Shown one piece after another: positions 44,701 to 47,700 of a DNA stretch of 64,000 nt. The stretch's first letter is position 1, and every line of letters begins with the position of its first letter. The position numbers are program-made. This DNA is from an uncultured Planctomycetaceae bacterium (GTDB taxonomy: Bacteria > Planctomycetota > Planctomycetia > Isosphaerales > Isosphaeraceae), in assembly GCA_963833985.1 (NCBI GenBank), contig CAWIAD010000002.1, positions 4,704,001-4,768,000 on the forward strand. The letters run 5' to 3'.

Positions 44701-47700
44701 TCATTGCCGGCACCAAGGACGAGCGCATCCACGCCTTCGACAAGACGAACGGAAAGCTGCTCTGGGAGCACCCGCTGCCCGCCGGCGGCTATGCCACGCC
44801 GGCGACTTACGAGGTCGGAGGCAAGCAGTACGTCGTGATTGCCGCGGGCGGCGCCGGCAAGCTGCGCACCCCGCCCGGCGACGCATTCGTCGCCTTCGCT
44901 CTGCCCGCTCAGTGACTCTGACCGCACTCTGCCGACCGGGAGGAAGCCGTCATGAAGCGCATCGCAGTGACTGTTTTGCTGCTTCTCCATGCACAGGCGG
45001 TGGCGGCAACCTCCGCGCTCGCCGCCGATCCGCCCGTCGTCACTCTCTGGCCCGGGAAGACGCCCGCCGACGCCGGCATCCGGGAAGCGGAAACCAGCAA
45101 GGTCCTTCAGTCGCCGCTGGTTGGCCCGACGCGGTTGATCACCAACGTCAGCAGCCCGTCGATCTCGGTGCACCTTCCCTCCGGGGAGACCAACACGGGC
45201 ACTGCCATGGTGATCTGTCCGGGAGGAGGTTACTGGAACCTGTACTGGGAGCTGGAGGGCGAGGAGGTCGCGGCCTGGCTGAACAGGCACGGCATGGCCG
45301 GCATCATCCTCAAGTACCGCTGCCCCAGGCGCCGGGTGAGGTGACCAGTGAGCCGCCGCCGGGCCCACTGCTCGACGCCCAGCGCGCCATCAGCCTGGTG
45401 CGGAGCCGGGCAAAGGAGTGGCGGATCAACCCGACTCGGATCGGCATCATTGGCTTCTCGGCCGGCGGGCACCTGGCGCTGGCGGCCGCGACCAGCTTCC
45501 CCAGGCGCCGCTACGACCCGATCGACGCCGTCGACGCGGTCAGTTGCCGCCCGGATTTCGCGGTGCTTTGCTATCCCGGCTACCTGAAAGTGAAGGACAA
45601 GGACGAGCTTCGCGCCGACCTGCGCATCCCGGCCGACACGCCGCCAATCTTCATGGCGCATACCTCCGACGACAATGAAAGCTACGGCGGCTCATCCTCC
45701 GAGAACAGCGCGATCGCCTACCTGGCCCTGAAGCGCGCGGGCGTGTCCGCCGAGCTGCACGTTTACGCCAGCGGCGATCATGACTTCGGAGTCCGCCAGA
45801 ACGAAAAGCTGCCGTCGAGCTGGCCGCAGCTCTGCATCAACTGGCTGCGGAGCCGAAACCTGCTGGTGAAGCCGAGTACCGACCGGTGAGTCGCGCCGCG
45901 GCACTCCGCGAGGTTCCGCGGAGATGCACGCCGCGAGCCGGCATGACCGCTGCGGATCAGGAGGCGGCAGCCGGCCCCTGCCCTGCGTAAAGAATCCACG
46001 CCAGCGCTGCCAGGTGGTACAGGCCGATTCCCAGGAAGAGGAGTGGCAAGCCCAGCCGCAAACTGCGGCTCTTCCAGGTGGGTCAAGTGCCGCAAAGCCG
46101 CTGAGCCACCGGCTTGCCGGCGCCGCCGACAATGCCTTGCCTCAGCCCCCAGAGTTTCAGGCACCCGAGCACGGTGAATGTTGCCCCGACGAGCGCGGAA
46201 GGTAACCAATCGGCAAGCGGAATCATGGTGCGGTCTCCACATCCAGAGTTGCTGCACAGAATGCGCCGGCTCGGGTCGGGCCGAGTTCAGCAGTCGTCAT
46301 GCACTTCCCGTGGCCTCCAGCCGTTCCGTTCGTCTGGCCGGGGCTGCGTCGCCATCCAGGGCCGTGATGGACGCAGAGCCCGGCCGCTCCTCCGCCAGCA
46401 TCGCCTGGAGTGCCGCGGGATCCACGGGCTTGACGAGATGGCGGTCGATGCCCGCCTCTTTCGAGCGCAGGCGGTCGGCATCCTGACCCCAGCCCGTGAG
46501 GGCGACGATCAGGACCGGTTCGCTCCAGTCGCGCTGGCGGATCAGCGCGGCCACCTCGTAGCCGCTCATGACGGGCAAGCCGATGTCCAGCAGGATCACG
46601 TCCGGGCGAAACGCGTCGGCGCAGGCAACGGCTTCGGCGCCGTCGAAGGCCGTGCGCGTCTCGTGGCCCAAAAGATCGAGGAGCTGCGCGAGCGTCTCGG
46701 CGGAATCTCGGTTATCGTCCACCACCAGCACGCGCCTGGACGCCGTGGGAATCGAGGCGACGGGCTCGGGCTCGGGGGACAAGGTGAGAGGATCCAGGGC
46801 TTCCACGACCGGCAGACGGATCAGGAACTCGCTTCCCGAACCATGGCCTGCGCTGCGTGCCTCCACCGAACCGCCATGCATCTCCACGAGCTTGCGCACC
46901 AGCGTCAGCCCGATGCCCAGGCCGCCCTGGGACTTCCCGAGCGACCCATCGACCTGGGTGAACATATCGAAGATCTGCGGCAGCATCTCTGGCGGGATGC
47001 CAATTCCGTTGTCCCGCACACTCACCGCAACCGCCGTCGCCTGGCACTCGACCGTCAGTGCGATGACGCCACCTGGCTCGGTGTACTTGGCGGCATTGTT
47101 GAGCAGGTTCGAGAGCACCTGCGCCAGCCGGGTCGGGTCCGCGTCCACCACAACGGGCGCCTCCGGCAGGGTGACTGTCAACCGGTGGCCGAGGGACTCG
47201 ACGAGCGGCCGGCTGGTTTCCACGGCGGCATGGATGACCGAGGCGATCTTAACCTTCTCCCTGCGCAGCTCCAGCTTGCCGCGGGTGATGCGCGACACGT
47301 CCATCAGGTCGTCGATGAGCCGTACCATGTGCGCGACCTGGCGCTCCATCAGCTTGCGGGCATCGTCGATCGCCTGCGGCTCGCCGGCAGCCAGCCGCAT
47401 GATTTGCAGGCCGTTGCGTAATGGGGCCAGCGGGTTGCGCAGCTCGTGGGCCAGGGTTGCCAGAAACTCATCCTTGCGGCGGTCGGCATCGCGCAACGCG
47501 GCCTCCAGACGCTTCACGTCCTCGATATCGGTGCAGGTACCGAACCAGTAGATGATCCTTCCGTGCTCGTCGCGCATGGGCACGCCGCGGGTCTTGAACC
47601 AGTGATATTCGCCGTCGTGGCGGCGGATCCGGTATTCGAGGTCGTAATCGGCGCGGTCCTCGCAGGCCGCCTTCCAGCAGGCGAGGGTGCGCTCGCGGTC

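Follow-up and report, generated by a model that had tools for sequence, protein, structure and literature searches.

The window, a stretch of 64,000 nucleotides from the genome of an uncultured Planctomycetaceae bacterium, carries at positions 45957..46226 (-) a short gene that is predicted to encode a two-helix membrane selenoprotein of 89 residues. The reading frame opens with an ATG at 46226. A Shine-Dalgarno-like GGAG (46235..46238, -) lies 9-12 nt 5' of this ATG, and homologues keep the same start register. The gene had been called with only 47 residues, and an earlier note on this DNA proposed that the call continues through an in-frame TGA. This is what the frame contains: 47 codons are followed by a TGA (codon 48; 46083..46085, -), predicted to be read as selenocysteine (Sec), and then by 41 further codons up to the final TGA (45959-45957), giving 89 amino acids. 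The first transmembrane segment, assigned by hydropathy to approximately residues 7-26 (46149..46208, -), has the invariant Lys24 (codon at 46157-46155, -) at its end. The second, at approximately residues 58-80 (45987..46055, -; hydropathy 1.9, pN/pS 0.45), lies entirely 3' of the UGA. The motif C45-G-T-U48 stands between the two, and its Cys45 (46092..46094, -), in a short loop helix, is the proposed resolving or partner cysteine. The two hydrophobic segments and the motif had been described before; we find the same segments both as 19-residue Kyte-Doolittle maxima of 1.48 and 1.91 and as helices 4-30 and 54-82 of an AlphaFold model.

On the same strand, a hybrid histidine kinase gene lies 73 nt upstream, and an alpha/beta hydrolase gene is convergent with the selenoprotein gene. 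The G+C content of the gene equals that of its flanks, and scans for promoters, terminators and Rfam families gave no match. A tblastn search of the genome returned two copies besides 46226-45957 (-). The copy at C2:3624290 is intact, with 83 amino acids, 69% identity and TGA at the same position. The other, near C2:3627612, has no in-register start codon, a second TGA at the equivalent of position 22, Thr in place of Lys24 and a frameshift at each end. The indels alone could be assembly errors, but the substitutions are not indels, and we therefore regard this copy as a pseudogene; thus, of the three copies counted in the earlier note, two are intact. A second Sec at position 22 of the pseudogene was considered and rejected, since the start codon and Lys24 are also missing. 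In the assembly, the genes neighbouring this third copy carry frameshifts as well.

The genome possesses tRNA-Sec, selA, selB and selD, and its SelD, FdhA and SelW-like (Rdx) genes each have one in-frame TGA. It had also been argued that every genome with the TGA has selA. The statement holds for the larger set (23 of 23 distinct genomes, with one match split and below the cut-off, and with G526 and G442 counted as one genome), but it is weak evidence alone, the background being about 75% (in the family 88 of 121 genomes have selA, and in the phylum 91 of 121). In the 22 other genomes with TGA, selA was the gene checked, and selD and tRNA-Sec were found in the two that were checked for these. 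Two genomes of one genus, 98-99% complete, bear TGT instead, and selA, selD and tRNA-Sec were not found in them over the cut-off. Neither TGT copy has the hairpin described below, and one of them is broken at its 5' end.

A predicted bacterial SECIS hairpin follows the UGA (46054..46070, -), with a 7-pair stem, a GTT loop at 46063-46061 and an energy of -10.3 kcal/mol. Its loop starts 19 nt past the UGA. The position had been described as the same as in the FdhA and SelW-like genes of this genome, which is accurate for FdhA (loop GGTCT, +18) and approximate for Rdx (+22); in SelD, the loop starts at +33. For a wider comparison, we used the bacterial SECIS model of PMC13188914 (section 5): a loop of 3-9 nt with G in the first two places, 16-37 nt from the UGA, and a stem of 4-16 bp with an energy of at most -7.5 kcal/mol, as coded in our own script for contiguous stems only. 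Hairpins of this kind occur at 36 of the 38 distinct intact TGA loci, which were obtained by removing duplicates and matches below 85 bits and which come from two phyla, versus 85 of 1000 control sites, which were TGA codons ending long ORFs of this genome. Since 14 of the 38 loci had been found with a DNA pattern that fixes part of the stem, it is important to note that the proportion among the others is 23 of 24. The two loci outside the model are L009 and L058, and a TGA locus found later (L181) has a hairpin of only -5.3 kcal/mol. The divergent loci L010 and L011 place a hairpin at the same position and build it from different sequence. In 36 distinct rows, pairing is found for 96% of cells, compared with 25-44% for slid controls, and two-sided changes are seen at 6 of 7 pairs, although these rows are kin rather than independent and the structure was drawn from the same sequences. 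The stability of the region is not unusual by itself (z = 0.27 against shuffles), so the weight of the hairpin comes from its fixed position, its G-led loop and the covariation.

The conservation of the TGA across loci, another point of the earlier note, extends to 50 of the 51 matches that cover the motif (duplicates included); the remaining one is a TAA in a broken copy, and three further locus matches that do not reach the motif stand outside the 51. Past the UGA, the open frame ends after 33-41 codons in 37 of the 38 loci. Uncorrected pairwise counts over 35 ungapped loci give a pN/pS of 0.454 for the part 5' of the UGA versus 0.451 for the part 3' of the hairpin, and synonymous divergence is 0.36 in the hairpin zone versus 0.62-0.64 outside it. 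Other frames were considered as the true gene and rejected, as stops close the antisense frames in 18-31 of the 35 loci and the two shifted same-strand frames in 20 and 5 of the 35, respectively.

An alternative reading is that TGA48 is a true stop after a 47-residue product, that the loci are decaying pseudogenes of Cys genes, or that UGA is read as some other residue. It would draw on the frequency of broken copies, on the frameshifts in neighbouring genes of the assembly and on a hairpin region no more stable than its shuffles. Set against these are 38 distinct loci of two phyla that share the TGA and keep the frame behind it open and constrained, the frequent closure of other frames, the compensatory changes in the hairpin, the interleaving of Sec and Cys forms on the tree discussed below (10 changes) and the use of TGA as an ordinary stop in this genome, where it terminates this very gene. 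We consider the alternative highly improbable. The sequence evidence makes it very probable that UGA48 is read as selenocysteine through SelB and the SECIS element and that the full product has 89 residues.

Cysteine homologues are the other line of comparison. Among the first six metagenomic homologues, four carry Cys at the site, as had been claimed; the other two are a protein with Arg there and a protein that stops at CGT. At 50% identity, protein searches yielded 115 representatives, and at 90% identity 151 proteins, of which the best 120 were used. The Sec column is occupied by Cys in 149 of 155 full-length database proteins, and by Arg, Trp or Gly in five database homologues. In the protein records, 41 of the 115 representatives end exactly one residue before the Sec site: gene callers cut the family at the UGA, and these 41 appear to be such stubs. 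G-x-(U/C)-P-(S/T)-W around the site and Lys24 form the conserved core. Within the 155 full-length proteins, the fixed residues are Lys24 (154), Gly27 (153), Gly35 (152), Gly46 (150), Cys/Sec48 (149), Pro49 (150) and Trp51 (146), and Lys24 is also found in all 38 Sec forms.

The partner cysteine behaves differently. All 38 intact Sec forms and 42 of 44 truncated forms have a Cys at -3, so that the CxxU motif put forward for the family holds for its Sec forms; it does not hold for the family as a whole. Of the 149 Cys forms, 102 carry the partner at -6, 31 at -3, three at +5 and one at -4; in the remaining 12, no second Cys lies between -14 and +10. On the short helix, one turn separates positions -3 and -6, so that the two may face the same way.

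The family is patchy and occurs in a few percent of the sampled planctomycete genomes. In agreement with the ten genomes first reported, 10 of the 121 genomes of the family Isosphaeraceae have a match, as do 7 of 401 genomes of the phylum and 11 of 401 of the class, with this genome included in each count. Six GTDB records matched, five of them titled planctomycetes and one Acidobacteriota, and none of 300 further Acidobacteriota genomes did so. A pattern scan of metagenome DNA, built on the planctomycete clade and allowing TGA, TGC or TGT, listed at least 120 loci, of which at least 20 are homologues, all with TGA; 100 of the 120 listed loci were not homologues and were dropped. Sec forms are mostly found in planctomycetes and Cys forms elsewhere, and the one named Cys form is from Verrucomicrobium. 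No relative was found on viral contigs, phages or plasmids.

On a FastTree tree of 184 sequences, with the three Cys columns removed, Sec and Cys forms interleave and parsimony counts 10 changes between them, a rough figure given the short alignment and modest support. The Cys forms with the partner at -6 make up one clade. Several relatives have broken extra copies. Such copies are frequent and five homologues have Arg, Trp or Gly in place of the Sec/Cys, from which we take the gene to be dispensable in many lineages.

As the earlier note stated for NCBIfam at a stricter threshold, the protein has no match there, in fact none up to E 10, and the same applies to Pfam. Its absence from the catalogue of prokaryotic selenoproteins is likewise borne out: among the 119 families in Table 1 of the 2026 review PMC13188914, no match was obtained to those that have an NCBIfam, TIGRFAM or Pfam model. 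Fifty members searched against NCBIfam 20.0, Pfam and PHROGs gave no consistent match; the best stray NCBIfam hit, in 1 of the 50, had E 0.0035. In 9 members, a Cys-rich complement domain was matched at E 0.02 or worse and taken as chance, and the single match of a PDB sequence search (E 0.086) was judged not credible. With two natural Cys homologues as queries, the ESM Atlas returned unnamed clusters only; by features, the nearest named Atlas clusters include Imm17, with 14-16% of members and scores below 0.9, which is a lead only. In PMC13188914 Table 1 and PMC12013277 Table 3, no entry describes this motif or architecture, and the main text of PMC13188914 has no occurrence of "planctomyc". 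The literature that we searched does not describe the family, although supplementary candidate lists and subscription journals could hold it.

The sequence comparison therefore leaves us with what is apparently an undescribed selenoprotein family that combines standard decoding with a new minimal membrane architecture. The decoding is shared with the known bacterial SelB/SECIS selenoproteins such as FdhA, SelD and the SELENOW-like proteins: an in-frame UGA, a G-led hairpin loop, Cys homologues, and selA, selB, selD and tRNA-Sec. The new family differs from them in having no domain that is known, thioredoxin-like or otherwise, and little beyond two membrane helices and a loop. With standard decoding, and with new selenoprotein families still emerging, this addition may be welcome rather than surprising to specialists. 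The bacterial selenoproteome would gain a family without a known domain from a phylum in which about three quarters of sampled genomes have selA.

An AlphaFold2 model built from 50 sequences is all-helical (pLDDT 91, pTM 0.74); its two long helices span residues 4-30 and 54-82, with a short helix at 40-45 between them. The loop between the long helices contains on average 6.4 Lys and Arg residues, versus 0.5 at the termini, and it has the higher count in 184 of 184 sequences. According to the positive-inside rule, basic loops face the cytoplasm. By this rule, the excess of Lys and Arg would place the loop, basic and about 30 residues long, on the cytoplasmic side, and the predicted fold is a helical hairpin that spans the inner membrane and has its two termini on the outer side. 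Structure searches found generic helical hairpins, with a best Foldseek E of 2.0 and a best VIA-align Z of 7.3 (rmsd 5.6, 77 residues aligned).

For the function, we give an even chance to a two-helix inner-membrane protein with a catalytic selenol facing the cytoplasm and a resolving Cys. In this mechanism, the hairpin 19 nt past the UGA would guide Sec-tRNA bound to SelB in decoding UGA48, and Sec48 would act as a nucleophile at the membrane surface that reduces a membrane-associated oxidant. Lipid hydroperoxides, quinones and oxidised thiols of membrane proteins are candidates for this oxidant. Cys45 would then resolve the oxidised Sec48 to a selenenylsulfide, which cytoplasmic thioredoxin or low-molecular-weight thiols could re-reduce. 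Lys24, at the cytoplasmic end of helix 1, might serve to stabilise the selenolate or to hold the substrate in place. Cys forms would perform the same chemistry with a resolving Cys at -3, at -6, or without one, and the gene would act by itself as an accessory gene, with frequent duplication, relocation and loss. A reductase is favoured because one fixed Sec/Cys with a movable or absent partner resembles the catalytic and resolving cysteines of thiol oxidoreductases. It is this residue pattern that carries the step; the comparisons gave no homologue of known function, no informative fold and no conserved functional neighbour.

Peroxiredoxins are divided into 1-Cys and 2-Cys types. The likeness of the new family to them and to MsrA, whose catalytic and resolving mechanism is treated in section 7 of PMC13188914, is one of working only: Sec may replace Cys at a fixed catalytic position, and the resolving Cys is movable or missing. 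Peroxiredoxins and MsrA are soluble enzymes and have no fold or sequence in common with the new family. Whether the family is further the first of a new class of minimal membrane oxidoreductases, in which a helical hairpin of 80-90 residues carries a Lys-activated selenol that works at the membrane's cytoplasmic surface without a thioredoxin fold, is a tentative proposal that we regard as somewhat unlikely.

The same residues can be read as a binding site. The loop could bind a soft metal or metalloid (Hg, Cu, Ag, As or Te), between the Sec/Cys and its partner Cys or across a dimer, and serve as a sink or hand-over site like the loop of MerT. MerT and MerE are small multi-helix membrane proteins; according to PMC5715351, MerT has a cytoplasmic pair, Cys76/Cys82, and both MerE and MerT need a Cys pair in helix 1 for transport. 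The new family has a Cys pair in a loop between two helices that we place in the cytoplasm, and the Cys76/Cys82 spacing equals the C-x5-C of 102 of the 149 Cys forms, whereas the Sec forms have CxxU instead. By description, the nearest entry in PMC13188914 Table 1 is a MerT-type C/SxxU putative mercuric transport selenoprotein (PF02411). Membership of MerT is nevertheless rejected: profile-profile alignment with hhalign to 12 MerT-like sequences gave a probability of 1.4% with only a hydrophobic stretch aligned, PF02411 has no match in 50 members at E 1 and none in this genome at E 1e-6, and no other Mer family matched the 50 members either. As no homology to MerT was detected, the likeness of C-x5-C is probably convergent. 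The new family also differs from these proteins in having two helices with a long loop between them, an invariant Lys24 and G-x-(U/C)-P-x-W. It has no pair of the kind that MerE and MerT need in helix 1; columns 18-26 contain no conserved Cys, and a single Cys22 is seen in 6 of 38 Sec forms. Moreover, 12 of the 149 Cys forms have no second loop Cys.

The neighbourhood bears on metal binding in both directions. Two loci have TerB-like genes nearby, and at one a heavy-metal P-type ATPase is encoded some 3 kb away; these are leads only. No mer or cop operon occurs among the neighbours scanned, many flanks being only 1.5-3 kb long. Metal binding is the chief competitor of the reductase reading; we hold it to be unlikely.

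Of 110 neighbour ORFs from 44 loci, just one cluster spans more than three loci: a gene of unknown function directly upstream in seven loci, six in the bacterium's own family and one metagenomic. In addition, copy 2 and the pseudogene sit among short genes, mostly unknown, that follow one another in the same orientation. No integron-like repeats were found around copy 2, where the duplicated gene itself is all that stands out. Accessory islands often encode toxin-neutralising functions. In a further reading, quite unlikely in our judgement, the Sec/Cys would serve non-redox chemistry as a carrier or as a covalent nucleophile, with persulfide or perselenide carriage, acyl transfer and electrophile scavenging as candidates, or else would be a redox switch for gating a membrane partner or neutralising a toxin. 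One invariant Sec/Cys with an invariant Lys would fit a covalent intermediate, and the island within its own family, the upstream gene of the seven loci and Imm17 among the nearest named Atlas clusters are consistent with such a role. On the other hand, no partner gene recurs outside the own family in the neighbour clusters of the 44 loci, and the Cys at -3, strict in all 38 Sec forms, has a simpler explanation as a resolving residue.

As for the resolving Cys and its favoured reductase, a thioredoxin-fold gene is directly adjacent in three loci (L006, L010 and L030), a weak lead that was seen after the fact; such neighbours are not rare, considering that this genome alone has 39 AhpC/TSA matches. 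Transposase genes adjoin two related loci. Elsewhere the gene stands alone among unrelated genes, and the genome context of the large C-x5-C clade rests on two loci.

SELENOK and SELENOS are small, single-pass membrane proteins with Sec near the C-terminus, in a disordered tail, and with a SECIS element in the 3'-UTR. The new family would share with them the presentation of Sec to the cytosol by a small membrane-anchored selenoprotein, and no Pfam match links them to it in 50 members. If the oxidoreductase reading is true, the family would be a bacterial counterpart of these small eukaryotic membrane selenoproteins. Its small size, its approximately 10 Sec/Cys exchanges on a rough tree and its movable partner Cys make it a handy model for the choice of Sec over Cys in membranes. 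Under the same condition, natural Sec/Cys pairs and three resolving-Cys layouts would allow the advantage of Sec to be measured directly.

Two variations in length were observed. Among 8000 candidates of 206-2000 aa, no longer fused form was identified, which is weak evidence; one protein of 269 aa, a singleton, joins the family to a histidine-phosphatase domain. An extra N-terminal hydrophobic segment is present in 17 of the Cys forms.

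Within the selenoprotein family, one selenocysteine (Sec) form and one Cys form make a very close pair. The protein homologue P0003, a Cys form, differs from the TGA form encoded at the genomic locus L071 in just three residues besides the Sec/Cys site; either one residue replaced the other very recently or a base is wrong in one of the sequences. Other members are shortened: five loci (L033, L042, L091, L107, and L131) lack the first half in frame and retain the motif, the hairpin, and the second helix, and the codon at the Sec site is TGA in four of them and TAA in one.

Immediately 5' of the selenoprotein gene, seven loci carry a family of 200–300-aa proteins of no assigned function (L012:573-1463, with homologues in L020, L021, L024, L027, L032, and L057), for which a Pfam scan returned no match. 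In the source genome (G000), copies 2 and 3 of the selenoprotein gene are located in an island of short, co-oriented unknown genes (L003 1400-13400, i.e., G000:C2:3619400-3631400), beyond which lie a small HTH_17 gene and a 988-aa open reading frame without a Pfam match. This island may be an integrated element.

Outside the window, the same genome encodes a SelW-like (Rdx) selenoprotein directly preceding a TGA-bearing selD (G000:C2:4294585-4295823, minus strand); the loop of the SelD hairpin, at +33, is more distant than those of the other genes compared. The AhpC/TSA family also has a match there (G000:C2:4615201-4615587, minus strand) that contains a single TGA in frame and is probably a peroxiredoxin-like protein containing Sec. 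Across the phylum Planctomycetota, selA is present in 91 of the 121 genomes sampled; this rate is high for a group left unnamed in the main text of a 2026 review of prokaryotic selenoprotein families (PMC13188914).

In the window, the selenoprotein gene is convergent with an alpha/beta hydrolase gene (44952-45889, plus strand), which is divided in two by a frameshift near 45340, probably an assembly indel. Upstream lies a hybrid PAS histidine kinase/response regulator gene (46300 to beyond 50600, minus strand) that is spread over more than one reading frame, with a shift near 48400. Farther away, an M16-peptidase-like reading frame (about 37800-40200, plus strand), named by inspection of its translation only, switches frame near 39800 at a TGA, which marks the end of a frameshift and is not a Sec codon.
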